The notes: generated from the letters alone by a model not told the origin. Positions 19,575 to 64,000 are shown, numbered from the stretch's first letter. The stretch: 64,000 bases of DNA from an uncultured Cytophagia bacterium (GCA_964605145.1 CAZSBG010000009.1:28727-92726), one strand, 5' to 3'. Program-made: numbers and translations.

Positions 19575-21659
19575 TCAGGCGTTTTTCTCAGCCTCGGTCT
19601 GCTCGATGATTTTTTCGGCCACGTCTTTGGGGACTTCCTCATAATTCGATAATTTGCGCGTATGTGCGCCGCGCCCCTGGGTGAGTGACCGCAATGTTGT
19701 GGAATATTTGTACAACTCGGCCAAAGGGATTTTGGCATTGATGACCTGAAACGGGCCATTAGAATCCATACCAAGAATTTTACCGCGTCGGCTTGAAATG
19801 TCACCCATTACATCGCCCATAAAATCTTCCGGCACCTGGATTTCAACGTCATAAATAGGTTCCAGTAATACGGGTTTGGCTCCTTTGAATACTTTTTTGA
19901 AGCACATGGACCCTGCAATTTTAAAGGCCATATCAGAAGAATCCACCGAATGGTAACTGCCAAAGAATAAAGTCACTTTGACATCAACGACAGGATAACC
20001 GGCGATTACGCCGTCGGCCATGGCTTCTTTTACACCTTTTTCAACGGCCGGGATGAATTTACCCGGAATGACACCGCCAACAATAGCGTCAACGAACTCA
20101 TACCCTTCGCCTTTGTTCGGCTCCAGTTTCAATGAAACGTCGCCGTACTGTCCGCGACCACCTGATTGTTTTTTGTGTTTGTACTGACTTTCACCTGCCG
20201 CGCGAATGGTCTCGCGATAGGGGATTTTCGGTTCGATCAGATTGACATCGACGCCGTATTTTTCTTTCAATCTTTTTACAACGATGTTCAAATGCAATTC
20301 GCCCTGACCGGAAATAATCACCTGCTTCAGTTCTGCATCAACATTTACTTTGAACGTTGGGTCCTCGTCCTGAATGCTGTTCAATCCGGATGAAATTTTA
20401 TCTTCATCGCCTTTGGCTTTTGGCTCAACTGCAACACGAATGACTGGTTCCGGAAAGGCGATTTCTGGAAGGATAATGGGATTCGATTTGTCGCACAGTG
20501 TGTTGCCGGTGGATGTGTTTTTCAATTTCACGATAGCGCCGATATCGCCGGTGCCGATTTGGCCAATTTCTTTTCTGTTCTTACCATTCATCAGGTAAAT
20601 CTGTCCAATTTTTTCTGCAGAATCTTTGGATGAATTCAACACCTCGGTGCCTGTTTTCAAAATACCGGAATACACTTTCACAAAGGATAATTCACCCACA
20701 TGTGGTTCTGAAATTGTCTTGTAAACCAATGCGGAAAGCGGTGCGTCATTCTTTATTTCCCGGGTAATTTCATCGGAGGCGCCCGGTTTTACGCCGACAG
20801 CTTCAGGCATGTCAGCTGGCGAAGGAAACGTACTGACGACCAAATCCAGCAGCGGACGTGTCCCAATATTTTCTGTCGCGACGCCGCACATAATTGGAAA
20901 TAAATTTCCTGATATGATGCTTTTTCTAAGGCCTTGCTTCAATTGTTCATCTGTCAATTCACCTTTATCACAAAAAATATCCAATAATTCTTCATCATTT
21001 TCTGAAACAGCTTCCATTAGTTCATTGCGCAATTCTTCTGCCCTGTCTGCAAATTCTGCAGGAATGGCTTCTTCTGTGAATTTTCCGGATTTATTCTTTT
21101 CAAATTTTAATAATTTCATCTTGATAATATCCACTATACTATCGAATTTTTCATTCCCTTCATTCACCGGAAATTGAAGCGCCGCAACGCTATTGCCAAA
21201 TCGTTCTTTTGTCATGTCGTACACTTTGGCGAAATTGGCATGTTCCTTGTCCAGGCGATTGACAAAAAACATCCGCGGGATTTCGTTTTTCTCAGCAATT
21301 CTATACACGGATTCAGTGCCAACTTCGATTCCTGAAACACCATTAAGCAGGACAATCGCTGCATCGCTGACTCTCATCGCACCGATTACTTCACCTACAA
21401 AATCTGAATATCCCGGCGTATCCATTACATTGATTTTATGATTCTTCCAATCCATATGCAACATCGAGGTGCTGATAGATATTTTTCGTTCAATTTCATC
21501 ATGATTGTAGTCGGAAATTGTTGAGCCATCGTCAACGGTCCCAATTCGGTTTGATTCCCCGGCTGTAAAGGCAATTGCCTCGGCCAGGGATGTTTTGCCA
21601 ACATCTCCGTGAGATATAAGTCCCACATTCCTGATTTGTTCTACTGTGTATTCTTTCAC
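19575..21659 (-). CDS. Elongation factor G paralog (EF-G2-like translational GTPase), not in an str operon context
   Basis: The G domain has HGDVGKTSLAEAI as G1, a divergent Ser in place of the usual Thr. Domains II-V follow, and the length is 694 aa. Confidence 0.85.
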   Translation of the reverse strand: MKEYTVEQIRNVGLISHGDVGKTSLAEAIAFTAGESNRIGTVDDGSTISDYNHDEIERKISISTSMLHMDWKNHKINVMDTPGYSDFVGEVIGAMRVSDAAIVLLNGVSGIEVGTESVYRIAEKNEIPRMFFVNRLDKEHANFAKVYDMTKERFGNSVAALQFPVNEGNEKFDSIVDIIKMKLLKFEKNKSGKFTEEAIPAEFADRAEELRNELMEAVSENDEELLDIFCDKGELTDEQLKQGLRKSIISGNLFPIMCGVATENIGTRPLLDLVVSTFPSPADMPEAVGVKPGASDEITREIKNDAPLSALVYKTISEPHVGELSFVKVYSGILKTGTEVLNSSKDSAEKIGQIYLMNGKNRKEIGQIGTGDIGAIVKLKNTSTGNTLCDKSNPIILPEIAFPEPVIRVAVEPKAKGDEDKISSGLNSIQDEDPTFKVNVDAELKQVIISGQGELHLNIVVKRLKEKYGVDVNLIEPKIPYRETIRAAGESQYKHKKQSGGRGQYGDVSLKLEPNKGEGYEFVDAIVGGVIPGKFIPAVEKGVKEAMADGVIAGYPVVDVKVTLFFGSYHSVDSSDMAFKIAGSMCFKKVFKGAKPVLLEPIYDVEIQVPEDFMGDVMGDISSRRGKILGMDSNGPFQVINAKIPLAELYKYSTTLRSLTQGRGAHTRKLSNYEEVPKDVAEKIIEQTEAEKNA

Positions 21660-48141: not shown

Positions 48142-50619
48142 CTATTTTGTCACCGCCGCCGGATTGAATTTGAATGTGACGCCTAAAATCAAAAACCAGG
48201 GTTTGTCATCATCCCGACTTTCCGTGATTACAGCTTCATCGCTCGTTGAATGATTGTAACTGTTGGCGGTAAATTGTTTGCCAAGCCCTAAAATCATGTG
48301 GTTCCACAGGACCATGGAAACGCCGGCGCCAATGTCGGCATTGAAACCATCGTCTGTGTTGGGATTCATAATATAGGCGCTGACGTTCATTTTTGCCCAG
48401 GTGAGACGATCGTCGAAGCGGTAATTCAACCCCAGCGCAATGTCGCCCAGAAGTTGAACATTGTCTCCGTTCATTGGAATGCGCATGGCCGTGACCCCTG
48501 TGGCTGCTTCCACGCGTTCATGCCATTTGCTCACTGTTTTCAATCGGAGTGAATATTCATTCTGATGGTTGATATTGGAGATGGAAAGGCGAAGTACGTT
48601 GCCTGGCTGAATTTGTCCGCTGAGGCTAATGGGCAGATACTCGGCTGGTTTGCCGGGTACAATGGTATCCGAGCGCGTGAAGAACGGAACCGAATTCAAT
48701 GAGTCGAGTCTGGCTTCGATGGAGACAATCTGTTTCCCTTCGGCCTCTGCTATTTTGCTTCCATCCAGCTCCAATTGAAAAACACCGCGCGAATAAATTT
48801 CCTGTTCGGCATAGGTGAGTTTGCGCAGTCTTGGAAACCGTCCCTTGCCCCAGCGAATATAGTTGTCGAAATTCACCCACTGTTTCACCCGTATGGGAAT
48901 GGTCTCGAATGAAAGACCATCTTTGCTCAACATGATTTCATAATTCCCGTCCATAATGGCATTGCCAGCAGTGATCGAAGCGACCAGTTGATTTTGCGTT
49001 GATTTGATTTCAGAAATGACGATGTTTTCATCTGTGATTAAACTGGCTTTGGCGAGTTGATTCCCATTGAGGATAATCGTCAAACGCTCCCCGGGGTGAA
49101 GAATTAATTTCGGCGGATTTTTGATTGTCGGTGGGAAATAGGCATCCACTTCGCCTGTCCATTCAGCGACCTTGCTTTTTTCGCCAACAGAAAAACTCAA
49201 TTTCAAATTTTCAGTGTCAGAACTCAATGTTTGACCTGTAGGCAGATCGATGAGCGCGCGGAGCGTTACCTGGTTCACATATTCTGCCGGAAATGAACTG
49301 CTTCCAATTTTTACCTCGTATTTCGAGCCCCGGCTGAATTTTCGCCGTTGGGCGTCTTTCTCCGGGAAGATGATGAATTCCATAGTGGTCGGTTTTCCGA
49401 AATATAATCGCTGCGCGCGATTTTTGATGGCTGGCGAGGCAATGGCAAATCGTCGCGACGCCAGTATTGTCCCGCGCGTAGACTGGCCGTCCGGATTGGT
49501 GACGATCACCTGATAATTCACATTATTTCGGGTAATGGGCACGCGCACGTGAAATTGCAGTTCCGTTCGGTCTTTGAAAATCATGGGTGCAGTATTTGCC
49601 CCTGTAAGTTGAGGAAGCACAACCCGCGCGTTACGCGAAAAATTCATTCCCTTGATGGTAATCGACTGAACCGAGCCGTCGGCGCGGAGCTCATCCGGAT
49701 TAAAATTGATGATAAACGGGCGTTCCGCTGATTTGATGTTGAGAACGCCATCGAAGTTCGTCATGGCAAACGGATGGGAAATGCGAAATTTTTGCGGCCC
49801 GATTTCAGGGGGCCTGTTTTTGTCGATTTCCAAATGTGCAATAAGTTGGGTGATATCTGAATTGCTTGATGTCGGCGAACTCGTCACGGTGATCGCCGGG
49901 TCGTCGAAGATTATTCGCGAATCCTTGTAAAAACCCTGGCCTTTGACCACGATATCGACTGAAGTGTTTGAATCTTTGAATAATTGCAATGTGTCCTGCA
50001 ACGTGTTTTTCGATAGAATATGAACCGAATGTATCTCCGGACGAGGCGCTCGGAATTCTATGAATCCCATTGCTTTGGTTGTTTTATTCTGCGGCTTCTT
50101 TGCATGTTTGAAAATCAGGGATCGATATTGTCGTACGGCTGTTTCTTCTATCTTTGTGTGAAGAATATTTTCAAAGTTTCGTTCCCCCACACAAAGCTGG
50201 TTTTTTAGGGATTCCAGCGTAGCCAGGATGTTGAATGGCAATCCCTCAGATTTCAGGTTCGATAAAACGTCGTCATTGATGAGAAAAGAGGATTTGGATT
50301 TGATCTGAAAGTATCTCTTGCCCAATTCATTCAATCCGGGCAAAACATTACAGGTAAATACAAGCGTATTTTTATTCTCTCGCCGAATTGTTTCAAGTTG
50401 TATAAAATTCTCTAACTCGTCCCAGAGCAAGGTGTCTGTATCAATAAATTCTAATTTTGAACTGTAGATGCTTCGCATGAATGAAAATTCCTGACCGGGT
50501 GATACGCTAACAGGCTGGACTTGAATGAGATCGGATTGAGCGAACACATTTTTGGGGTGGTTGTAAAAAATACTGAGCGTTAAAAGAAAGAATAGCAAAG
50601 TAAATTTTTGTAACTTCAT
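48142..50619 (-). CDS. Large secreted hypothetical protein (825 aa), possible outer-membrane or surface protein
   Basis: It has a signal peptide and several beta-rich repeats. The C-terminal Gly- and aromatic-rich segment ends in ...FKFNPAAVTK, but I recognise no enzymatic motif. Confidence 0.5.
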   Translation of the reverse strand: MKLQKFTLLFFLLTLSIFYNHPKNVFAQSDLIQVQPVSVSPGQEFSFMRSIYSSKLEFIDTDTLLWDELENFIQLETIRRENKNTLVFTCNVLPGLNELGKRYFQIKSKSSFLINDDVLSNLKSEGLPFNILATLESLKNQLCVGERNFENILHTKIEETAVRQYRSLIFKHAKKPQNKTTKAMGFIEFRAPRPEIHSVHILSKNTLQDTLQLFKDSNTSVDIVVKGQGFYKDSRIIFDDPAITVTSSPTSSNSDITQLIAHLEIDKNRPPEIGPQKFRISHPFAMTNFDGVLNIKSAERPFIINFNPDELRADGSVQSITIKGMNFSRNARVVLPQLTGANTAPMIFKDRTELQFHVRVPITRNNVNYQVIVTNPDGQSTRGTILASRRFAIASPAIKNRAQRLYFGKPTTMEFIIFPEKDAQRRKFSRGSKYEVKIGSSSFPAEYVNQVTLRALIDLPTGQTLSSDTENLKLSFSVGEKSKVAEWTGEVDAYFPPTIKNPPKLILHPGERLTIILNGNQLAKASLITDENIVISEIKSTQNQLVASITAGNAIMDGNYEIMLSKDGLSFETIPIRVKQWVNFDNYIRWGKGRFPRLRKLTYAEQEIYSRGVFQLELDGSKIAEAEGKQIVSIEARLDSLNSVPFFTRSDTIVPGKPAEYLPISLSGQIQPGNVLRLSISNINHQNEYSLRLKTVSKWHERVEAATGVTAMRIPMNGDNVQLLGDIALGLNYRFDDRLTWAKMNVSAYIMNPNTDDGFNADIGAGVSMVLWNHMILGLGKQFTANSYNHSTSDEAVITESRDDDKPWFLILGVTFKFNPAAVTK

Positions 50620-54759: not shown

Positions 54760-55770
54760 TTGACCTACGCTATCGAAACAGTCGGATTGACCAAAGAATA
54801 TCCGCAACATCGGGGCTATTCGGAATTGCTCCTGCATCCGCTTCGAAAGAAATCGTTCACGGCGCTGAAAAATATCTCGTTGCAGCTTCGTCACGGTGAA
54901 CTGTTCTGCCTGTTAGGATCCAACGGCGCCGGAAAAACCACACTCATCAAAATTTTGTGCTCGCTGGTTTTGCCCACATCCGGCAAGGCATTTGTGGACG
55001 GATTCGATGTGGTAAAGCAGGGGGGAGAAGTCCGAAAAAAAATAGGTTACGTGGTCAGCGATGAACGCAGCTTTTACTGGCGCTTGACAGGCCGGCAAAA
55101 TCTTCAGTTTTTTGCCACGCTGCACAAAATGCCATCTTCCATCATTCCCGAAAAAATAAATCGATTGCTGGATATGACTGGTTTGCAGCCGGATGCCGAC
55201 AAGTTATTCAAAGATTATTCGTCGGGCATGAAGCAAAAGCTTGCCATTGCGCGGGGATTGCTCAATGACCCTGAAATGGTGTTCATGGATGAACCAACCC
55301 GCAGCCTCGACCCGTACACATCGCACATTTTGAGGAATTTCATCAAAGAAAAAGTTGTGGGGGAAAACGGAAAAACTGTTTTCCTGGCCACGCACAATCT
55401 GCAGGAAGCGGAAACGCTGAGCGATAAAGTCGCCATCATTCACAAAGGTCAATTTCGCGCGTTTGGAACCATGCAGGAAATTCTTCAAAATGGAAAGACG
55501 CGTCCGGTGTTCGCAGTTTCGCTCGCCCGACCAACGCCGGAAGTCCTGTCCCGCTTGAAAGAATCCTTGTTTTCAATTGAATTTATCAGGGATAATGTTG
55601 AATTGCCGCTGAATGGCACTCCTTTTGAATTTGAGATTTCTGGTTCAGAAAATGAAATTCCGAAAATGATTCGAATGATTGTTGAAGCCGGCGGGGATGT
55701 ATTGAGTTGCGCCCCAAAAAAAATATCGCTCGAGCATGTTTTCGCCAATTTCATTCAGGAGGGAAAATGA
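54760..55770 (+). CDS. ABC transporter ATP-binding protein (ABC-2 exporter type)
   Basis: Walker A is GSNGAGKTT, the signature is YSSGMKQKLAIARGL and Walker B is VFMDEPT. A C-terminal extension follows. The apparent start codon is TTG. Confidence 0.85.
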   Translation: MTYAIETVGLTKEYPQHRGYSELLLHPLRKKSFTALKNISLQLRHGELFCLLGSNGAGKTTLIKILCSLVLPTSGKAFVDGFDVVKQGGEVRKKIGYVVSDERSFYWRLTGRQNLQFFATLHKMPSSIIPEKINRLLDMTGLQPDADKLFKDYSSGMKQKLAIARGLLNDPEMVFMDEPTRSLDPYTSHILRNFIKEKVVGENGKTVFLATHNLQEAETLSDKVAIIHKGQFRAFGTMQEILQNGKTRPVFAVSLARPTPEVLSRLKESLFSIEFIRDNVELPLNGTPFEFEISGSENEIPKMIRMIVEAGGDVLSCAPKKISLEHVFANFIQEGK

Positions 55771-56582
55771 GAGCGAGCCTTGCCATTCCCTGGGCGTTTT
55801 TAAAACGCGACCTCCGCAACGAATCCAGTTACAAACTGCATTTTTTCATGCAAATGGCCGGGATTCTTTTTTCCACGGTGACATTTTATTTCTTGTCAAA
55901 ATTAATCGGCACAAAATTCAATGCGTATTTGAAGCCATACGGCGGCGATTACTTTTCGTTCGTTCTCATTGGAATTGCCTTTTCCCATTATTTGCAGGTG
56001 TCGTTGCAGGGATTCAGCAAGGTCATCCGCGAAGCCCAGGTGATGGGCATCCTCGAGCCGCTGTTGGTCACCCAAACGCGAGTCGAAACCATCATCCTGT
56101 CTTCGACGCTGTACAATTTTCTACTCACGTCGCTCCGCGTGATGGTTTTTCTGCTGCTGGGCGCCCTCGTTTTTTCGATGGACATCAGCAATGGAAATTT
56201 CCCCGGCGCGCTGTTGATTTTGCTGCTGACCATCCCATCGTTCAGTTGTCTCGGCATCATTTCAGCAAGCTTCATTATGGTGATGAAAAAAGGCGATCCG
56301 CTGTCCTGGCTGTTCAGCAGCGTTTCGTGGTTGATCGGGGGCGTTTACTATCCAGTTGCGATTCTTCCGCAATGGATGCAGCATTTGGCGTATCTGCTGC
56401 CCATTCGCCATTCCCTGGAAGGCATGCGCATGGCATTGCTGCAGGGATATTCGCTGAAACAACTGCTGCCCAGCATTATCCCGCTGCTGGTTTTTTCGGC
56501 GATCATGCTGCCGCTCAGCTTGTTAATTTTCCGTTTCGCGGTGAGAAAAGCAAAAATAGATGGGACGCTTACTCAATATTGA
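55767..56582 (+). CDS. ABC-2 type transporter permease
   Basis: The product has six TM helices. Its ATG overlaps the upstream stop codon (ATGA) by four nucleotides, which suggests translational coupling. The alternative-frame ORF 55736-56662 was rejected. Confidence 0.75.
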   Translation: MRASLAIPWAFLKRDLRNESSYKLHFFMQMAGILFSTVTFYFLSKLIGTKFNAYLKPYGGDYFSFVLIGIAFSHYLQVSLQGFSKVIREAQVMGILEPLLVTQTRVETIILSSTLYNFLLTSLRVMVFLLLGALVFSMDISNGNFPGALLILLLTIPSFSCLGIISASFIMVMKKGDPLSWLFSSVSWLIGGVYYPVAILPQWMQHLAYLLPIRHSLEGMRMALLQGYSLKQLLPSIIPLLVFSAIMLPLSLLIFRFAVRKAKIDGTLTQY

Positions 56583-57864
56583 AATCAGTGGCAGGGTTTA
56601 TGGGGCATGGGAAACCGGCTTTGTTCAACATCAATAATGATTTTTTTCTGCAAAGCAAATAAAAATAAAATACGACCGGAATGATGCGGTTAAAGAAAGC
56701 AATCACGGGATGAAGTACACTCAAAAGATAGACTTTTTTCGAATTTTGGGAGAGTCGGTATTTATTCCGTAATTTCTCATGAGAAGGGAACAGGCTGACG
56801 AAAATATGCCTCAATTTATTTCCGAAATTTTCAGCAAGTGAAAGACGGCGTGAGAACGAGAATACCTGCTGGTCAACTTTCTGGGCCATGTATAATCGGT
56901 CGAAATAATCCGGGGAAAACTCGGATTTCAATGCAATAAGTATTTCTGAGGGGATTATGTCTGGTATTACCTCATTTGCGAAAAACAGTCCTGCATAAAC
57001 AAAGTGCGACAATTTGTATTTGTGACAGTTAACCAATAACTGCTCCCAATTCAATCTTTCTTTAAACCGAAAAATTACAGCCGAAATATCGTTAATTTCC
57101 CGATAGGTGATGTTCGTGTTTAATTTATAGAAATGATGCACACACAAATGAAGAAGTGTATCTTCAGGGGAAAGGAAAAGAGCATCGATCTTGTCAATTT
57201 TTCCTTGTTTTACTCGGTCCCATATTTCATCAATTTCAATTTTGATAATTTGATTGTTAGTCCGTAACGTCCAGTGCAGTTCAATGGCCGGTCTCCTTTT
57301 TCGGGACATTGGAGCAGAATGGTGGGAAACTGGTGTGCCGTCTTTTCTCATGGCAGTTTTTGATGAAGATGAATAGTTATGCTCATGTAGAATTCTTCGC
57401 GCCCGATTCATATCATCTTTTTTCACCAACAAGTCAAGGTCGCTGGTCTTACGCACGCCCCAATCCTTGTAAACAGTATCCAGCAGCATTGGCCCTTTAA
57501 GAACGACTGTTTCAATTCCCTCTTTTCGAAATAATTCCAGCACAAATTTTAGTTCATCAAAGATAACCACATTCCAGCCGTATGCAGCAATGTATTTTTC
57601 TTTCAATAACGCGAAATGATCGGATGGAATCAAATCCTGTTTTCCGAAACATTTCAGGTTTGAATAAATCAATGAAGCGACCTGCTGATTTATGGCAAAC
57701 TCGACCAGAAAATCACAGCTTGTCTCGCTGGTTATCAGCGATTCAATTTTCTGAAAAATGGTTTCATCCGGAATGACTGTCGACAGAAGCCTGACCAGTT
57801 TTTTCTCTGTTGCAAATTTATTTCTCACAGTGAGCCTCGAAATGCAAGAAGGTTGGAAAAACAT
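56569..57864 (-). CDS. Uncharacterised nucleotidyltransferase family protein (NTP_transf_5/PF14907-like)
   Basis: The minimal nucleotidyltransferase fold motif is LKGPMLLDTVYKDWGVRKTSDLDLLV. The tracked ORF extends 5' into the upstream peptidase gene, so the start is uncertain. Shown here from the internal Met, MFFQ. Confidence 0.55.
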   Translation of the reverse strand: MFFQPSCISRLTVRNKFATEKKLVRLLSTVIPDETIFQKIESLITSETSCDFLVEFAINQQVASLIYSNLKCFGKQDLIPSDHFALLKEKYIAAYGWNVVIFDELKFVLELFRKEGIETVVLKGPMLLDTVYKDWGVRKTSDLDLLVKKDDMNRARRILHEHNYSSSSKTAMRKDGTPVSHHSAPMSRKRRPAIELHWTLRTNNQIIKIEIDEIWDRVKQGKIDKIDALFLSPEDTLLHLCVHHFYKLNTNITYREINDISAVIFRFKERLNWEQLLVNCHKYKLSHFVYAGLFFANEVIPDIIPSEILIALKSEFSPDYFDRLYMAQKVDQQVFSFSRRLSLAENFGNKLRHIFVSLFPSHEKLRNKYRLSQNSKKVYLLSVLHPVIAFFNRIIPVVFYFYLLCRKKSLLMLNKAGFPCPINPATDFNIE

Positions 57865-58364
57865 CGGTTGGTGTAATGAAACAATCGGCGAAACACACCT
57901 CGGAAAAAGCGGTTTTGCCGGGTGAAAAAATAGTTGCTCAGAATTCGCCATTGCATCTGTAGCAGCTTCCCGTACAAGAAATGAATTATGCGATAGCGCC
58001 GGCGTGTAAGATCAATATCTTGATTTTTGGCTTTTATTTCAACGACTTTTCCAAGCACAAGAGACTCCGGAAAAGGATTGTCGAAACGTCCCACAGAATC
58101 ACCCTTTGTGACGATGTAATTAAACATGCCTCTCTGAAATCGGGTTACAAATCGATGTGTGTAATATTTTGTTTCACAATCGATGAGAATAATGTCCCCC
58201 GGAATCAGTTCGGACGCTTTTGCAGCTTCAACAATAATATTATCCCCGGCGTGAATGACCGGGGACATGCTGTTAGTGATAACCTGAGATTTGATTGTTT
58301 GGCAAATAGCCAACTGCTCACGAAGAATTTCAGTTATCACACTTGCCAATTTTTGATCATTCAT
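57825..58364 (-). CDS. S26/S24-like serine peptidase (signal-peptidase-I/LexA fold)
   Basis: The Ser nucleophile box is NSMSPVIHAGDNIIV, and VTKGDSVGRFDNPFPES resembles box D with a candidate general-base Lys. The C-terminal tail is Arg/Phe-rich. Confidence 0.5.
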   Translation of the reverse strand: MNDQKLASVITEILREQLAICQTIKSQVITNSMSPVIHAGDNIIVEAAKASELIPGDIILIDCETKYYTHRFVTRFQRGMFNYIVTKGDSVGRFDNPFPESLVLGKVVEIKAKNQDIDLTRRRYRIIHFLYGKLLQMQWRILSNYFFTRQNRFFRGVFRRLFHYTNRCFSNLLAFRGSL

Positions 58365-58386
58365 AAAATAATTGCAAGTGATTTAT

Positions 58387-58536
58387 TCTATGTATGAGAT
58401 GGGGTACAAAGTAATGAAACAGATGTACAAGAACCAGCCAATGATTCAATAGTATTTGAATGACTGATGTTTGGTTTTATATATCGTTTCTTAATTGATT
58501 TTCTTTTCTTTTTCTCAGAAAAATTTTTTTCTGTCA
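58387..58536 (-). CDS. Candidate RiPP precursor peptide (49 aa; not in the ORF track because it is under 60 aa)
   Basis: Manual translation gives MTEKNFSEKKKRKSIKKRYIKPNISHSNTIESLAGSCTSVSLLCTPSHT. GGGAGA lies 10 nt upstream of the ATG. The start is 50 nt downstream of the radical SAM gene stop, and the stop is 23 nt upstream of the peptidase gene start. The leader is basic; the tail is rich in Cys, Ser and Thr and ends in Thr. Confidence 0.45.
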
Positions 58537-58590
58537 TGATACCAGATCTCCCTAATTTTATGATTTAGCGCAATGAAACAAACCTTAGAA

Positions 58591-59681
58591 TTAGTATATT
58601 TTTTCAATTGGATAATTGATAATGGTTTTTTTTGTTACCGATTTCCTGATACTCGCATGCCTGCATGATTCTTTTGCCGGCTCATAAAGGCTTCCATGCT
58701 CCATTAAAGCGAGCCCCGGGCAGGGACTACAGTAATCCATGTCGTCACAGGTTGCACAATGCTTTAGCTTTGTTAACGTTAATTCACGAATATGTTTTAA
58801 AACCAATGAATTCGACCAAATTTCACGAAATGGTTGTTGGCGTAAGTTACCTGCTTTTTGTTGTATTCGGACACAAGGATAAACATCTCCAAATGGCGAA
58901 ATTAATGTGACTATTTTGCCAGAACTACATATTGTTTCATTTAGGTCGCGATGAAAAAAATCCAAATTTGAAAAATTTTGCTTATAAAATTTAATAATGT
59001 CTTGTGTCTCTAACCGATATTTCAGCGGTAGTTTATCATTGTTCGCTTTTGGATTAATCACTGGATCCGGAAGAAATTTTGCACCAACAAAATCTGCATA
59101 CTCCTGAATGGCTCTCAATTCATTTATATTTTGTTTCATGACAATCGTTTTTATATGCACATTCATTTTGAATTTTATCAGATGATGTATTGCAGACATT
59201 GTTCGCGCAAAAGAACCGGGGATTTGTGTAATACCATCATGTATGTCTTCGGACATGGCATAGATGCTGATTTCAACAAACAGTGGATAGAACTCTGCAA
59301 TTTTCTTCGCGTAACCTTCTGTGATCAGCGTTCCATTTGTGAATAACCGCAATGCAAATCCTTTAGATTTCGCGTGCGAAATAATGTCAAAATAGTCTTT
59401 CCGTAGCATGGCCTCGCCGCCGGAAATTGCAAGGTACAATGTCCCTGCCTCTGCCAATTGATCCAAAATGTCTTTTACTTCATCTGTTGTCAATTCCTGT
59501 CTGTCCGGTTCGTTCACCGCGTAACAATGAACGCATTTCAAATTGCAGCGGTAAGTCAAATCCAGGTGCGCGTAAAGCGGTATATTTTTAGCTGCGGCTC
59601 TGCGCTCGAGGTCACCATAGGATGTGCTGTGTTTTTTGTTTGTCGGAGCTGATTGCATCAATAAATTTCCCCATTCAATCA
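58591..59681 (-). CDS. Radical SAM/SPASM-domain peptide maturase
   Basis: The CX3CX2C motif is YRCNLKCVHCY. The C-terminal Cys-rich SPASM region reads CVRIQQ...CATCDDMDYCSPCPG. The tracked N-terminal 31-50 aa read through a repeat element, so the start is placed at MIEW or MQSAP (~59657-59714, uncertain). Confidence 0.85.
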
Positions 59682-59709
59682 TTTCTAGTCGTTCGTTTCC
59701 AAAATAGTG

Positions 59710-59797
59710 TGTCATTGCGAGCGAAACGGGGTGAAGCGAAGCAATCCCCTGCCCACAAGCGTGAGATTGCTTCGGCCAAAAATGCCTCGCAATGACA
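59710..59797. repeat. MITE-like palindromic element, copy 6 (TGTCATTGCGAG subtype)
   Basis: It runs from TGTCATTGCGAGCGAA through an internal GAAGCAATC...GATTGCTTC hairpin to GCCTCGCAATGACA. It overlaps the annotated 5' end of the radical SAM ORF. Confidence 0.55.
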
Positions 59798-59875
59798 ATT
59801 ATTTGCAATGTTATTTAGTACTACATAGTCAGATTAAAAAATGTCTCGAAAAACAAAGCAGTATTTCATAATCAT

Positions 59876-59954
59876 TGTCATTCCCGCATGCTTTTAGCGG
59901 GAATCTCCTCGTGTTTTAGAATGAGATTCCTGCAAAAAACGTGCAGGAATGACA
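59876..59954. repeat. MITE-like palindromic element, copy 7 (short TGTCATTCCCGC subtype), inside an 18-bp outer inverted repeat
   Basis: TGTCATTCCCGC is followed by hairpins ATTCCCGC...GCGGGAAT, GGAATCTC...GAGATTCC and CCTGC...GCAGG, then AATGACA. The outer inverted repeat is TACTACATAGTCAGATTA at 59818 and TAATCTGACTAAGTAGTA at 59964. Confidence 0.55.
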
Positions 59955-60036
59955 GAAAAATGGTAATCTGACTAAGTAGTATTAGTATATTACAAATTAT
60001 TTTCTGATCATTTTTGGCAGAATATTTAAATACTCT

Positions 60037-60132
60037 ATATAGAACACGGATGACGCTGATGAAACAGATTTACGCAGATAAAAATCCGTGAAGATCAGCG
60101 TCATCCGTGTCATCTGCGTTCTATTTTTTATT
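60037..60132. promoter_or_regulatory. Large perfect hairpin (17-bp stem, 33-nt loop) with a 3' T-tract on the plus strand, between the PqqD and radical SAM genes
   Basis: ACACGGATGACGCTGAT-loop-ATCAGCGTCATCCGTGT is extended by ATAGAAC and GTTCTAT, then TTTTTTATT. It has terminator-like architecture in the plus orientation and lies inside a minus-strand operon. Confidence 0.4.
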
Positions 60133-60183
60133 CTGGTTTATCCAGGTTAGGAAACGTAATAGTAGTATTATTCATTTGAAGTA

Positions 60184-60468
60184 TCACATTTTGCTTACAA
60201 ATTCAATCATGTTTTTCTCAACCAATTCTTCGATAAAAATTGTCGTGTCCGCTTCCGCGGTCGCCAATTCCACATCAAACTCATTTTGAATTTCAGCGGC
60301 GATCTCTCGCACTGTTCGAGAACCATCGGTCAATTCCCAAACGCGGGTGCCAACTTCATTCAATGTGTTAATTGATCCTTCCATGGGTTGCACGATTACG
60401 GCCTCGCCATCCACAACGCGGGACGCGGTTTGGGTGCTTTTGTTTGGGTAATTGTCAAGAAAGCTCAT
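60184..60468 (-). CDS. PqqD-family RiPP recognition element (RRE) protein
   Basis: The PqqD-like pattern is DGEAVIV...LNEVGTRVWELTDGSRTVREIAAEIQNEFDV...FIEELVEKNMI. The likely start is MSFLDNY at ~60468, which has a GGAGG ribosome-binding site; the tracked ORF extends further 5'. Confidence 0.8.
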   Translation of the reverse strand: MSFLDNYPNKSTQTASRVVDGEAVIVQPMEGSINTLNEVGTRVWELTDGSRTVREIAAEIQNEFDVELATAEADTTIFIEELVEKNMIEFVSKM

Positions 60469-61315
60469 GAATTGTCCTCCAGAATGAATTGTCTTTTGTG
60501 AAATGTAGTTCATAACAGGGAATGCGGTTGGCCAAACTTGTACAGAATTCCAGGGCAGTTTCACTGCCAATCGAGTGATTGCTCAAAGGCCGAACGCTGT
60601 TTAATAATTCAAAAACAGCGTTTACAGGTTTCATTTTTAGCGCATAGGTGCGCGTATCCTGAATAAGCCGGAAACACGCTCTTATACGCGCAGTGGTGTT
60701 GGTAAGCTGGAAGCCATTTTTTTCTGAATTGAACGGGCAGGCTGAAACGTTCGCAGAACCATTTTTCTGCTGCAGCACAAGCAAATCGTCCCCTAACACA
60801 AATCGCGGTTTTGAGAAATTCGTCACTGTTGTTTTTCCCACGCCGGACGGCCCGAAAAAAATGTATCCTTCTTCGTTTTCAATGATACCGGCTCCATGAA
60901 ATACGGTGGATTTGTTCTGCAGAGCAACGACAGCAAAGGCAACCCGTAAAAAATGCTCCAGCCAGGATAACGGATTAGCTTCATTGATCGCCATCTCAGC
61001 GATACCTGTTTCCAAATTCACATATCCAATAAAATAGTTAGACCGGACAAAGCAGGTGTTCCCTTCGTATCGCTGATCCACATACAAATTATCGTTGCCT
61101 TCAGAATCGGGAAAGTGAATTCCCTCTGTCAGATGAATGTCAATCTTCAGAAAACAGCCTGTTTCTTCGGTGGTAAATTTGATATATTGGTCCCCCAACG
61201 CATCCATCAACGCTTTATCTGTAGAATTCAATTGAACCACAAAATCAGCGATTTTTAATTTCAGAGAATAGGGTTCGTGTGCGAATTTATAGGAGTCGAA
61301 TGGAAATGTGTTCAT
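60455..61315 (-). CDS. HprK-related P-loop kinase (HPr kinase C-terminal domain-like)
   Basis: The sequence HGAGIIENEEGYIFFGPSGVGKTTV resembles the HprK C-terminal Walker A region. The length is 286 aa. The stop codon overlaps the PqqD gene start. Confidence 0.65.
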   Translation of the reverse strand: MNTFPFDSYKFAHEPYSLKLKIADFVVQLNSTDKALMDALGDQYIKFTTEETGCFLKIDIHLTEGIHFPDSEGNDNLYVDQRYEGNTCFVRSNYFIGYVNLETGIAEMAINEANPLSWLEHFLRVAFAVVALQNKSTVFHGAGIIENEEGYIFFGPSGVGKTTVTNFSKPRFVLGDDLLVLQQKNGSANVSACPFNSEKNGFQLTNTTARIRACFRLIQDTRTYALKMKPVNAVFELLNSVRPLSNHSIGSETALEFCTSLANRIPCYELHFTKDNSFWRTIHELS

Positions 61316-61710: not shown

Positions 61711-64000
61711 ATGAAAAAATTAATGTTTGTGCTGGCGCTTTCTGTTCTAGTTAGCGCAAATGTATTTTCTCAGAATAATGCCCTCGATTTTGATGGGACA
61801 AATGATTATGTGGATTTAGGTAATAGTAATGGTTTAAAACCAACTTCAGCTTTGACTTTTGAATGCTGGATGAATCCTGATAGCTGGAGTATCAGCGGTA
61901 ATCATCACGTATTTGCCGGGAATACTCAAAGTGGTGGTTACAATATTGCTCTGGGCTATCCCACAGGGACAGATATCGGTTTTGCCGTTTATTCTTTTTC
62001 AGCTTATCGTAGAGTGGATGCCTCTGTGAGCGGTTTTTCCGGCTGGCATCATGTGGGTGGAACTTTTGATGGGCAATATGTTAAACTTTATATCGATGGG
62101 CAATTGGTCGATGAATTTGATATGAGCACTTCTGGAAATACTATCACCTATACAGTCAGTAATAGCACCTTACTGGGGGCAGAAGCAGGTTCTGGGTCAG
62201 GATCTGGCGGGTATGAATATGATGGAAAATTAGATGAAGTGCGATTTTGGAATGTTGTCCGCACACAAACAGAAATTCAGGATAATATGTACACCAGTTT
62301 AGCAGGCAATGAAAGCGGATTAATCGCCTACTACAAAATGACCGATGGTAGTGGCACAAGTTTGACGGATAATTCGACAAACAGCTATACGGGCACACTC
62401 ACAAATGGAGTAAGCTGGACTGATGATATTGCTACTGTCGTACCCTTTGATACAGATAGTGATTCTAAATTGGAAATAAACAATGACGCAAATCTATTTT
62501 ATTTGTCGCTACACTCTGGATTATGGGATCTCGACTTCATTCAAACCGCTGATATTGCATTCAATGAAGATCAAACTCTGGTGGACTGGGATGGAGACGG
62601 TGTATTGGAACATATGGATTTTTATCCCGAAAATGATGATTATTATGGACTGGCAACCATTGGAAACAACAGTGTGTCATTTTCAGGAGAATATGATGGG
62701 CAGAATCATACGATTACAAATTTGTATATTAATAGGGATCAGAATTATGTAGGGCTTTTTGGAAAAGCCAGTGGAGGCACTGTAAAAAATCTCGGGCTTC
62801 CCGGAGTGTATGTGAGAAGTGCGTCTTATAATTTTGTGGGCGGCCTTATCGGGTATCAGGGCACGGCAATCAATTGCTATACCACCGGCACTGTAAGCGG
62901 TGCGGCCTGTGTTGGTGGACTGATGGGTTACTATGGCAATGCCCAATCCTGTTATTCCACCGCTAATGTTTCCGGTTATTATAATATTGGAGGCCTGATG
63001 GGAACGGGTGGCAGTGCCAGCAACTGCTATGCAATGGGTAATGTAAGTTCAAATATTGGCCCTGATGGCGGACTTATTGGAAGCCTGGAAGTTGGCCATG
63101 TCATTAATTGCTATTCGGCTTCTTCATCGCAAACGGATGGTGGTCTCATTGGCGAAAAAAACCCAGATGAAAATATGGCATCTGTTACGAATTCTTTTTG
63201 GGATGTGACTATCTCAAATCAATCAACAAGCGATGGGGGCACAGGAAAAACAACGGCAGAAATGAAAGATGTGAATACTTACTGGAATTCAACCTGGGAT
63301 TTTGTGATTGAAACGGTTAATGGAACGAATGATTACTGGGAAATGGATGAATCTGGATCTGTAAATAGTGGATATCCTTTTCTTTTCTATCAGAATGGAG
63401 ATGAAGAATTAATCCCCGATGGGCTTGTTGCATTTAGTGGAGGAGCTGGTACTGAAGAAGATCCATACAAAATTGCAGATCTGGACGATCTGATTGGGCT
63501 CAGTGACAATAGCGGATATTGGGGAAGTGGAACCTACTTTATACAAACAGCAAATATAGATGCATCATCCACGAGTGGTATGAATAGTGGTGCGGGATTC
63601 AGTCCTATCGGAAACGGTAGTACATCCTTTGGAGGCAATTATAATGGTCAAAATTATACGATATCAGGGCTGACAATTGACAGAGATCAGAATTATGTCG
63701 GATTGTTCGGCCGCGGAGGAACGATTTCAAATTTGGGTGTCGTGAATTGCTCCATTAGTAATGCATCCGGAAATTATACAGGCGCTCTGGTTGGGCGGGG
63801 GGGAACAGTAACGAATTGTTATTCCACCGGTACAGTAAGCGGAGCTAGCCACGTTGGGGGATTGATCGGATATTGGGGTAGTGCGGAATCCTGTTATTCT
63901 TCGGCTAATGTTACTGGCTTTATCTATGTTGGTGGTCTAATGGGAACGGGCGGCAGTGCCAGCAACTGCTATGCAATGGGTAATGTAAGTTCAATTGTCA
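61711..64000 (+). CDS. Large secreted LamG-domain / GLUG-repeat surface protein (5' partial; no stop codon in the window)
   Basis: Manual translation from ATG 61711 is open to the window end (at least 763 aa). A signal peptide MKKLMFVLALSVLVSANVFSQ is followed by a LamG_3-like region (LDFDGTNDYVDLG...DEVRFWNVV). Repeated GLUG-type motifs then occur (VGGLMGY, IGGLMGT, GGLIG), including a near-exact internal duplication (...GGLMGTGGSASNCYAMGNVSS appears twice). The gene is missing from the ORF track because it is open-ended. Confidence 0.75.
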   Translation, partial: MKKLMFVLALSVLVSANVFSQNNALDFDGTNDYVDLGNSNGLKPTSALTFECWMNPDSWSISGNHHVFAGNTQSGGYNIALGYPTGTDIGFAVYSFSAYRRVDASVSGFSGWHHVGGTFDGQYVKLYIDGQLVDEFDMSTSGNTITYTVSNSTLLGAEAGSGSGSGGYEYDGKLDEVRFWNVVRTQTEIQDNMYTSLAGNESGLIAYYKMTDGSGTSLTDNSTNSYTGTLTNGVSWTDDIATVVPFDTDSDSKLEINNDANLFYLSLHSGLWDLDFIQTADIAFNEDQTLVDWDGDGVLEHMDFYPENDDYYGLATIGNNSVSFSGEYDGQNHTITNLYINRDQNYVGLFGKASGGTVKNLGLPGVYVRSASYNFVGGLIGYQGTAINCYTTGTVSGAACVGGLMGYYGNAQSCYSTANVSGYYNIGGLMGTGGSASNCYAMGNVSSNIGPDGGLIGSLEVGHVINCYSASSSQTDGGLIGEKNPDENMASVTNSFWDVTISNQSTSDGGTGKTTAEMKDVNTYWNSTWDFVIETVNGTNDYWEMDESGSVNSGYPFLFYQNGDEELIPDGLVAFSGGAGTEEDPYKIADLDDLIGLSDNSGYWGSGTYFIQTANIDASSTSGMNSGAGFSPIGNGSTSFGGNYNGQNYTISGLTIDRDQNYVGLFGRGGTISNLGVVNCSISNASGNYTGALVGRGGTVTNCYSTGTVSGASHVGGLIGYWGSAESCYSSANVTGFIYVGGLMGTGGSASNCYAMGNVSSIV

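Follow-up and report, generated by a model that had tools for sequence, protein, structure and literature searches.

A radical SAM-containing gene cluster related to those for linear polyphosphorylated peptides in an uncultured Cytophagia bacterium

Genes and other features of the cluster

The window considered here is a stretch of 64,000 nucleotides from an uncultured Cytophagia bacterium (GCA_964605145.1, CAZSBG010000009.1:28727-92726). Positions 54760-61315 carry eight tightly packed genes, seen here with the features that accompany them:

54760-55770 (+), ABC transporter ATPase (DrrA-like), 336 aa
55767-56582 (+), ABC-2 type permease, 271 aa
56569-57828 (-), PF14907 (NTP_transf_5) nucleotidyltransferase-fold enzyme (NTase), 419 aa
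57825-58364 (-), SipW/archaeal-type signal peptidase I-like protein, predicted leader peptidase, 179 aa
58388-58537 (-), precursor peptide, 49 aa, preceded by a GGGAG ribosome-binding site
58591-59658 (-), radical SAM (rSAM)/SPASM peptide maturase, 355 aa
59659-60183, 525-nt spacer with three palindromic REP/MITE-like elements (59710-59797, 59876-59954, 60044-60110)
60184-60468 (-), stand-alone PqqD-type RiPP recognition element (RRE), 94 aa
60455-61315 (-), HprK/PEPCK-fold P-loop protein (Pfam PF27840, ScmC family), predicted peptide Ser/Thr kinase, 286 aa
61412-61440 (-), sigma-70-like promoter match
61711-64000 (+), gene for a Laminin_G_3 + GLUG-motif secreted protein, divergent from the kinase gene and running off the window

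The identities of most of these genes are evident from profile searches: ABC_tran (1.8e-28) and the drrA subfamily (8.8e-73) for the ATPase, ABC2_membrane (4.6e-15) for the permease, PF14907 (9.2e-49) for the NTase, TIGR02228 (6.1e-11), SipW (3.7e-4) and Peptidase_S24 (4.7e-4) for the peptidase, Radical_SAM (3.8e-22) and SPASM (2.9e-9) for the maturase, PqqD (2.5e-17) for the RRE, and Laminin_G_3 (5.2e-24) and GLUG for the neighboring gene. The start of the PqqD gene overlaps the stop of the kinase gene by 14 nt, the stop of the peptidase gene overlaps the start of the NTase gene (ATGA), and the genes for the ATPase and permease overlap by 4 nt. An independent gene call gives 94 aa for the PqqD protein, and the gene call for the NTase is 419 aa.

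The original prediction, that this region encodes an uncharacterized RiPP-like operon, is supported and survives each of the refutation tests proposed with it, but it needs correction in some particulars. The ABC transporter genes were described as divergent, but they are convergent with the NTase gene, the 3' ends overlapping by 14 nt (56569-56582). The peptidase is of the SipW/archaeal signal peptidase I type rather than S26. Long ORFs beginning with TTG overstate the sizes of the genes for the rSAM protein, PqqD, NTase, and permease. The comparison made with the transporter of the subtilosin alb locus adds nothing, and the closest characterized relative, discussed below, was not recognized.

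The spacer between the PqqD and rSAM genes is full of palindromic repeats. A motif, TGTCATTSCSRS, is enriched in the window, occurring 5 times against 0.2 expected. Short-read assemblies (loci L002 and L073) break exactly at the spacer, and a search of Rfam gave only spurious hairpin hits. The promoter match (TTGACA-17-TATTAT, 11/12), about 100 nt upstream from the kinase gene, comes from a consensus scan only and is weak evidence, since the region has fewer such matches than does shuffled sequence.

The kinase and the radical SAM protein

The P-loop protein is assigned to PF27840 by precomputed annotation and gives weak NCBIfam hits to HprK_rel_A, HprK_rel_B and ScmC. Motifs invariant in the family are FHGAG (H140), the Walker A sequence GPSGVGKTT (155-163), and LGDD (174-177). 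Its AF2 model (pLDDT 86.8) was compared by Foldseek to known structures, and the best PDB matches are ATP-PEPCK (E 4e-8) and HPr kinase 1knx (E 8e-6).

The rSAM protein is not a housekeeping enzyme. Its best NCBIfam hits all lie far below the family cut-offs (AhbD 164/500, NirJ2 149/500, MftC 144/265, PqqE 101/381, MoaA 78/325), and there are no pqq, mft, heme or sulfatase genes adjacent. The CX3CX2C motif is conserved in 47 of 47 homologues from similar cassettes, and the seven Cys of the SPASM domain are conserved in most of them. The closest solved structures are those of SkfB (4.8e-14), PqqE (1.5e-9), and CteB (1.3e-6).

A conserved precursor peptide

The 49-aa ORF, MTEKNFSEKKKRKSIKKRYIKPNISHSNTIESLAGSCTSVSLLCTPSHT, is a genuine precursor. 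It is called as a gene in a Logan assembly, and homologues lie at the same position in about 30 loci from FCB-group, Chloroflexota and Zixibacteria MAGs, with the consensus K-rich-YEKPxhhH..hE(S/T)hAGxC-x6-17-C-x4-S. In the alignment, Y19, P22, A34, C37, and C44 are invariant, there are always exactly two Cys, the last Cys lies 5 residues from the end in 27 of 30, and the C-terminal residue is Ser in 28 of 30 (Thr in this window). The predicted leader comprises residues 1-32, and the predicted core is LAGSCTSVSLLCTPSHT (calculated [M+H]+ of 1676.80 unmodified).

The cluster is more than a chance arrangement, as judged by the recurrence of the same gene order in independent loci at 37-61% protein identity. 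The order kinase-PqqD-rSAM-precursor-peptidase-NTase-ABC2 is found in three other loci (L003, L012 and L013) at 37-83% identity, the permease being 83%, 64%, and 67% identical, respectively. The order kinase-PqqD-rSAM-precursor...peptidase recurs in about 25 Chloroflexota/Zixibacteria loci. NTP_transf_5 and ABC-2 genes are missing from most of the Chloroflexota loci, so they are accessory rather than core.

Comparison with characterized systems

The closest characterized system is that producing linear polyphosphorylated peptides (LPP) in Bacillota (Popov et al. 2026, PMC13381572). LPP clusters contain the same four enzyme families: a discrete PqqD-type RRE, an HprK-like kinase (hitting TIGR04249), a TIGR02228 peptidase that acts as leader peptidase, and an NTP_transf_5 enzyme. 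They also have an exporter. The peptidase in the window is similar to the characterized LppS (BLASTP E 7e-8), with S32/H70/D95 aligned to the LppS catalytic residues S29/H68/D93. The C-terminus of LppK, deduced from a primer (NDTFWELIS), matches the C-terminal motif of the kinase family (DNSFWRxI). The LPP leader motif, YxxPxVLxHQxIxFET, aligns with YEKPxVIH..hE(S/T), although the spacing is 2 residues shorter in the latter.

There are also clear differences. No radical SAM enzyme is mentioned in the text of that work or in the supplements examined, whereas here an rSAM/SPASM gene lies inside the operon and is conserved with it. LPP clusters use an MsbA-type exporter rather than a DrrA-like ATPase with a separate ABC-2 permease. 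LPP cores are 35-200 aa long, variable, free of Cys, and phosphorylated on core Ser3, while the cores considered here are about 17-30 aa, with two invariant Cys, a C-terminal Ser/Thr, and Gly at position 3. Finally, the RRE in the window shows no BLAST similarity to LppB.

An HprK-like kinase and an uncharacterized NTP transferase also act together in tailoring lasso peptides of the paeninodin/pseudomycoidin type (PadeK/PsmK and PsmN). The kinase adds one or more phosphates to the C-terminal Ser, and in pseudomycoidin PsmN is required to add hexose to the phosphate. The leader carries YxxP and is read by a PqqD-type RRE, and the best NCBIfam hit of the RRE in the window is lasso_PqqD_Bac (5.9e-11). 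However, all ORFs of the cluster are accounted for by other families, and no lasso cyclase or transglutaminase-like B2 protease lies within 54.7-61.3 kb. Leader removal is assigned instead to the SipW-like serine peptidase, and an rSAM/SPASM enzyme is present.

The SynChlorMet cassette (TIGR04248-TIGR04251), a bioinformatic definition with no known product, likewise combines an ScmC-family P-loop protein, a relative of PqqD, and rSAM/SPASM protein(s). All four equivalog models score far below their cut-offs in the window (ScmC 15/125, ScmD 37/100, ScmE 106/400, ScmF 81/400), and there is one rSAM gene rather than two.

Sactipeptide and ranthipeptide maturation (SkfB, AlbA, StsB, CteB) also relies on an rSAM enzyme with a full SPASM domain, an RRE, and a short core containing Cys. 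No curated model is reached (AlbA 91/850, SkfB 76/300, StsB 135/625), the RRE is here a separate protein rather than an N-terminal domain, and the kinase, NTase, and SipW-like peptidase have no counterpart in those pathways. In the literature searched, no paper combines radical SAM, HPr kinase, and PqqD.

A proposed pathway

I propose that the cluster directs the synthesis of a RiPP (a ribosomally made, post-translationally modified peptide) by means of an LPP-type tailoring and processing set plus an rSAM/SPASM maturase. In this view, the RRE binds the precursor through its YIKPNI (YxxPxh) leader motif, and the rSAM enzyme modifies the short core, most likely by forming thioether bridges (sactionine- or ranthionine-type) from the two invariant Cys. 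The kinase then phosphorylates a Ser/Thr, most likely at the near-invariant C-terminal Ser (Thr49 or Ser47 in this window), and the PF14907 enzyme adds a hexose or nucleotide to that phosphate. The SipW-like peptidase, presented with the leader by the RRE, cleaves after the conserved h-E-(S/T) (IES|LAGSC here), and the ABC-2 pump exports the product or confers immunity to it. There is precedent in LppK, which polyphosphorylates its precursor, and in LppS, which cleaves after F-E-T and only when the RRE is present.

This model is more likely than not, but every chemical step, the order of the steps, and the sites of cleavage and phosphorylation are inferred, and no product has been observed for any member of the family. 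The site phosphorylated in LPP is not conserved, and the C-terminal site is assigned only by analogy with lasso peptides. The precursor in the window and its nearest relative end in Thr, and LppK did not accept Thr in place of Ser3. LppN was inactive in the one system tested. Since the best (though sub-threshold) scores of the rSAM protein are to heme and mycofactocin enzymes, thioether formation is only the guess favored beforehand. The model also does not explain the association with C25 genes described below.

Alternative views

It is possible, though less likely, that the cluster makes a RiPP as proposed but that its rSAM enzyme performs some other chemistry, such as a C-terminal oxidative reaction like that of MftC, a C-C or C-O cross-link, or epimerization, with the two Cys forming a disulfide or binding a metal. 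The hit to MftC is the only high-ranking NCBIfam hit that spans the whole protein in one stretch (residues 76-361, 144 bits). The fixed distance of the second Cys from the C-terminus (C-x4-S) points to chemistry measured from that end, and the residues between the Cys are not conserved across lineages, so no conserved acceptor is evident. On the other hand, the two Cys are the only invariant core residues besides one Ala, the nearest solved homologue, SkfB, is a Cys-thioether synthase, and most Cys-rich substrates of rSAM/SPASM enzymes probably become sactipeptides or ranthipeptides.

The idea that the locus is decaying in this genome, or is not expressed as a unit, is improbable. The spacer does split the operon, while the corresponding gap in relatives is 0-285 nt, and a second copy of the cassette in the related MAG (L017) has a precursor broken by a stop and a frameshift. 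But all eight ORFs are intact with catalytic motifs preserved, the precursor retains every invariant residue, and REP-like hairpins between genes would not normally be expected to abolish expression. A chance juxtaposition of housekeeping functions, suggested by the heme-pathway hits of the rSAM protein and the unusually well conserved permease, is effectively refuted by a gene order that recurs across phyla together with a co-varying precursor. Those hits are also far below cut-offs, and the genes overlap or abut.

An association with C25 genes and the wider family

There remains a view, doubtful but ranking above decay, in which the same parts serve a different purpose, coupled to PorU-like C25 "sortases" and their cargo proteins. 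In six distinct FCB-type loci, C25 genes with strong but sub-threshold PorU scores (T9SS_sortase 237-389 bits against a cut-off of 420) sit directly upstream from the kinase gene. In Chloroflexota/Zixibacteria loci they sit directly after the precursor and again after the peptidase. Of 28 kinase-seeded genome loci with enough flank, 16 have C25 within 9 kb. LamG_3 proteins with a T9SS C-terminal domain (Por_Secre_tail) lie inside the cassette in loci L005, L012, L013 and L014, unannotated Chloroflexota proteins flanking the cassette share a domain with the L005 LamG protein, and a LamG_3 gene lies next to the kinase gene in the window. Against this, the window has no C25 gene in 64 kb yet keeps an intact cassette plus its own exporter, adjacency to porU in FCB bacteria could be inherited synteny, many of the loci are MAG contigs that are cut short, and no biochemical precedent links a RiPP to a PorU-type sortase. 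If this view were correct, the modified peptide would not be a free antimicrobial but an acceptor, anchor, cofactor or regulator in a system for sorting or processing cell-surface proteins.

Whatever its function, the precursor belongs to a large peptide family found across several phyla that nobody has studied. A profile search finds 726 clusters of such peptides, all of them annotated as hypothetical.

The gene cluster

ORF listing and HMM scans confirm the set of genes named in the original prediction. On the minus strand, in order of transcription, are:

61315-60455 (-), a 286-aa P-loop protein, placed by the precomputed annotation in Pfam PF27840 'ScmC' and hitting HprK-related kinase A/B and ScmC only weakly in NCBIfam
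60468-60184 (-), a 94-aa PqqD protein (Pfam 2.5e-17), whose ATG lies 14 nt before the kinase stop
59659-60183, a 525-nt spacer
59658-58591 (-), a 355-aa radical SAM/SPASM protein
58537-58388 (-), a 49-aa ORF with a GGGAG ribosome-binding site
58364-57825 (-), a 179-aa protein matching archaeal-type signal peptidase I and SipW (TIGR02228 6e-11)
57828-56569 (-), a 419-aa PF14907 nucleotidyltransferase (9.2e-49), whose start overlaps the peptidase stop

On the plus strand are:

54760-55770 (+), a DrrA-like ABC ATPase
55767-56582 (+), an ABC-2 permease

The two ABC genes converge on the nucleotidyltransferase (NTase) gene, with 3' ends overlapping by 14 nt, and so they are not divergent as had been originally predicted. 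Independent gene calls on short-read assemblies of the same locus give the same boundaries and also call the 49-aa ORF.

The spacer between the PqqD and radical SAM (rSAM) genes holds three palindromic REP/MITE-like elements (TGTCATTGCGAG...CTCGCAATGACA at 59710-59797; 59876-59954; 60044-60110), and related TGTCATTSC motifs occur at 20062 and 47286. Short-read assemblies of the same locus break in this spacer, and the long TTG-start ORF of the rSAM gene reads through one of the elements. A search of the region against Rfam gave only spurious miRNA-hairpin hits on a palindromic repeat, and a promoter/terminator scan was not informative, finding fewer sites than in shuffled sequence.

Enzymes that appear functional

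Twelve homologues of the kinase share invariant FHGAG (H140), Walker A GPSGxGK(T/S)T, and LGDD motifs, which seem to resemble the motif arrangement of the HPr kinase C-terminal domain. A sequence search of the kinase profile against the PDB gave only P-loop-level hits, and a fold search was needed to see the relationship. The best solved matches to an AlphaFold2 model (pLDDT 86.8) are ATP-dependent PEP carboxykinases (E 4e-8, TM about 0.5) and HPr kinase/phosphatase 1knx (E 8e-6). HprK and PEPCK are, it would appear, classed in one P-loop superfamily.

In the radical SAM enzyme, CX3CX2C is conserved in 47/47 cassette homologues, and seven further Cys in the SPASM arrangement are conserved in most. 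The protein reaches no curated family cut-off: AhbD 164/500, MftC 144/265, StsB 135/625, PqqE 101/381, AlbA 91/850, MoaA 78/325. A housekeeping identity (MoaA, PqqE, AhbD/NirJ, MftC, or anSME) is rejected, since all scores are far below cut-offs and there is no cognate context. Membership of the SCM cassette or of the HprK_rel_A/B systems is likewise rejected on scores. The closest solved relatives by sequence are the thioether synthase SkfB (4.8e-14), PqqE, and CteB.

The peptidase aligns with the experimentally characterized leader peptidase LppS (E 7e-8), with Ser32, His70, and Asp95 opposite the LppS catalytic residues S29, H68, and D93.

A conserved precursor peptide

The 49-aa peptide in the window is MTEKNFSEKKKRKSIKKRYIKPNISHSNTIESLAGSCTSVSLLCTPSHT. 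It has homologues immediately after the rSAM gene, or after inserted genes, in locus L003/L015 (from a MAG labelled uncultured Cytophagia) and in two further loci, L012 and L013. It also has homologues in about 25 Chloroflexota, Zixibacteria, and Acidobacteriota loci, sometimes as tandem duplicates. Such duplicated precursor genes, with identical or near-identical cores, are found in four loci (L019 9372-9721; L025 5264-5654; L028 12214-12576; L031 8762-9123).

Thirty distinct sequences align as: Lys-rich N-terminus - Y-E-K-P-x-h-h-H/Y - x3 - h-E-(S/T/A) - h-A-(G/A/S)-x-C - 6 to 17 variable residues - C - x4 - S. All have exactly two Cys, the second lying 5 residues from the end in 27/30. The last residue is Ser in 28/30 and Thr in the window and its nearest relative. 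A profile of 20 of them retrieves 726 protein clusters from 5.8 billion sequences, every one of them unnamed or 'hypothetical' and none with a Pfam domain. NCBIfam has no model for them. In the protein collection the window peptide (58388-58537) is recorded only from Logan assemblies and not from the NCBI record that carries its neighbouring genes, and therefore the deposited MAG annotation probably lacks this gene.

Not every cassette has a precursor so easily recognized. In variant loci L005/L006 and L014, the kinase gene abuts the rSAM gene with no PqqD gene between them, and there are one to three LamG_3 genes. No precursor was found by pattern search in L005 or L014: these may be degraded loci, or the precursor may lie elsewhere. 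An alternative-frame ORF inside the L005 NTase gene begins VIYQKPRI, but with a GTG start, no Lys-rich region, and no E(S/T)xAGxC motif, it was judged a chance match. A second cassette copy (L017 13380-13530), in the same 'Cytophagia' MAG as L003/L015, has a precursor-like ORF (…KKEKYQKPQIVHTSEIQTLLGS) interrupted by an early stop and a frameshift before …ECTPNYS, either a pseudogene or an assembly error.

Distribution of the cassette

The kinase has only 13 word-indexed relatives, but a profile search of 1.84 billion cluster representatives (clustered at 50% identity) gives 506 hits at E <= 1e-30 and 5027 at E <= 1e-10. The full order in the window (kinase, PqqD, rSAM, precursor, peptidase, NTase, then the convergent ABC-2 permease and ATPase) is reproduced in L003/L015 and also in L012 and L013, there with a LamG_3 gene inserted after the rSAM gene. 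Protein identity is 37-83%. A scan of one genome per species, seeded with the kinase profile, returned 58 loci.

Table. Components found in loci seeded with the kinase profile (component: all 58 loci; 28 loci with enough flank)
PqqD: 49; 23
rSAM/SPASM: 42; 19
SipW-like peptidase: 31; 21
Recognizable precursor: 26; 15
Peptidase_C25: 28; 16
NTP_transf_5: 12; 6
ABC-2 permease: 4; 1

The core of the system is therefore kinase-RRE-rSAM-precursor-peptidase, while the NTase and the ABC-2 exporter are features of the window's subgroup and a few others. A 539-aa Chloroflexota peptidase protein (in L018) might have been taken for a fusion of peptidase and NTase, but hhalign of its C-terminal family against the NTase family gives a probability of 0.1, and in most loci the peptidase is a stand-alone protein of about 200 aa. 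A locus from an archaeal MAG (L038 6283-17283) combines a kinase homologue, ABC-2 transporter genes, a peptidase-NTase-like 478-aa ORF, and four rSAM-like genes. It may be nearer to the original SynChlorMet cassette.

Relationship to linear polyphosphorylated peptides

Literature searches for SynChlorMet, for ScmC with radical SAM, and for HPr kinase with radical SAM and PqqD returned nothing. The closest known system is in Bacillota, the 'linear polyphosphorylated peptides' (LPP) defined by Popov et al. 2026 (PMC13381572). The LPP core set is a SipW-like signal peptidase LppS, a discrete RRE LppB, an HprK-like kinase LppK, an uncharacterized NTP transferase LppN, and an MsbA-like pump. LPP precursors carry the motif YxxPxVLxHQxIxFETxxS. 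LppK adds up to four phosphates on core Ser3, and LppS removes the leader after F-E-T, in vitro only when LppB is present. The unphosphorylated precursor is processed poorly, and LppN was inactive in the heterologous host.

The domain table of that study lists PqqD, NTP_transf_5, TIGR02228, and TIGR04249, the same four families as in this window. The LPP leaders align with the present family through Y-x-x-P-x-V and h-E-(T/S), and the C-terminus of LppK deduced from a cloning primer (NDTFWELIS) resembles the family's conserved C-terminal DNSFWRxI. Radical SAM, SPASM, and Peptidase_C25 do not occur in that paper's text or in those of its supplements that were examined, one of them incomplete. 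A second precedent comes from the lasso peptide pseudomycoidin, in which the HprK-type kinase phosphorylates the C-terminal Ser and the NTase-like PsmN is required for adding one or two hexoses to that phosphate.

A proposed pathway

I propose, by homology, that the RRE binds the YIKPNI leader segment and that the SipW-like peptidase cuts after I-E-S, which corresponds to F-E-T in LppA and gives the core LAGSCTSVSLLCTPSHT (calculated [M+H]+ 1676.80 unmodified). Conservation suggests that the two invariant Cys are the targets of the rSAM/SPASM enzyme, most plausibly as thioether bridges, and that the near-invariant C-terminal Ser, at a fixed distance from Cys2, is the kinase site, then extended by the PF14907 enzyme as in the lasso systems. 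The ABC-2 pump would export the product. None of these steps has been observed, and there are points that sit uneasily with the scheme: the LPP phospho-site (core Ser3) is Gly here, and the window peptide ends in Thr. The window locus is a real and apparently intact member of a widespread, uncharacterized RiPP family, best described as a radical-SAM-containing sister of the LPP family.

Association with PorU-like sortase genes

Then there is the company that the cassette keeps. In six distinct FCB-type loci, a 1300-aa Peptidase_C25 protein with a T9SS C-terminal domain lies directly upstream of the kinase gene, scoring just under the PorU cut-off (385-389 bits against 420), and LamG_3 proteins with T9SS sorting domains are inserted after the rSAM gene. 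In Chloroflexota and Zixibacteria (L018-L032 and similar loci), two PorU-like Peptidase_C25 genes are embedded in the cassette (e.g. L018 12826-15918 and 17562-19718), one following the precursor and the other following the peptidase and an unannotated gene of about 340 aa. A roughly 140-aa ORF sharing a domain with the latter protein precedes the kinase gene. These unannotated Chloroflexota proteins share a domain with each other and with the FCB-type LamG/T9SS-CTD protein (L018 9449-9856; L022 16601-17665; L005 12904-14730), and none has a Pfam match.

The window itself has no C25 gene in 64 kb. It does have genes for two putative surface or sorted proteins:

61711-64000 (+), a secreted-looking Laminin_G_3 + GLUG-repeat protein, starting 395 nt from the kinase gene, divergent from it, and running off the window end
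48142-50619 (-), an 825-aa protein with a signal-peptide-like N-terminus and a 'choice-of-anchor Z' repeat domain (NF058597, 2.6e-11), another putative surface or sorted protein near the cluster

Association across such distant lineages argues for a functional link, but I cannot say what the link is.

Alternative views

The rSAM chemistry could be something other than thioether formation, a tentative possibility that is compatible with the pathway proposed here. A less likely view is that the peptide is not free but has a sortase-coupled role at the cell surface. In its boldest and still more doubtful form, the kinase-RRE-rSAM-precursor-peptidase cassette may be one half of a conserved two-part system with PorU-like C25 sortases, operating both in T9SS-bearing FCB bacteria and in Chloroflexota, where no type IX secretion system appears to have been described. 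The cross-linked peptide with a phospho-glycosylated C-terminus would then be covalently joined to sortase-processed surface proteins, or serve as their acceptor or anchor, or regulate them, a new role for a RiPP in cell-envelope protein sorting. It is quite unlikely that the repeat-filled spacer reflects local decay of the cluster. Chance juxtaposition is contradicted by the synteny and by the co-varying precursor.

A large and unannotated family

New RiPP families are found regularly. What is of interest here is the combination of genes, the clean precursor consensus, and above all the linkage to sortases. The cluster joins two maturation strategies not previously seen together, radical SAM/SPASM chemistry and the kinase/NTase/SipW-peptidase set of the LPP family, which was first reported only in 2026. 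It defines a large, entirely unannotated RiPP family, spread over Chloroflexota, Zixibacteria, FCB-group, and other uncultured lineages, with a clear precursor consensus, a predicted cleavage site, and predicted modification sites. The LPP end product was never identified, so this sister family may help to reveal what the PF14907 enzyme does. The recurrent embedding among PorU-like sortase genes hints at a function beyond antibiosis.
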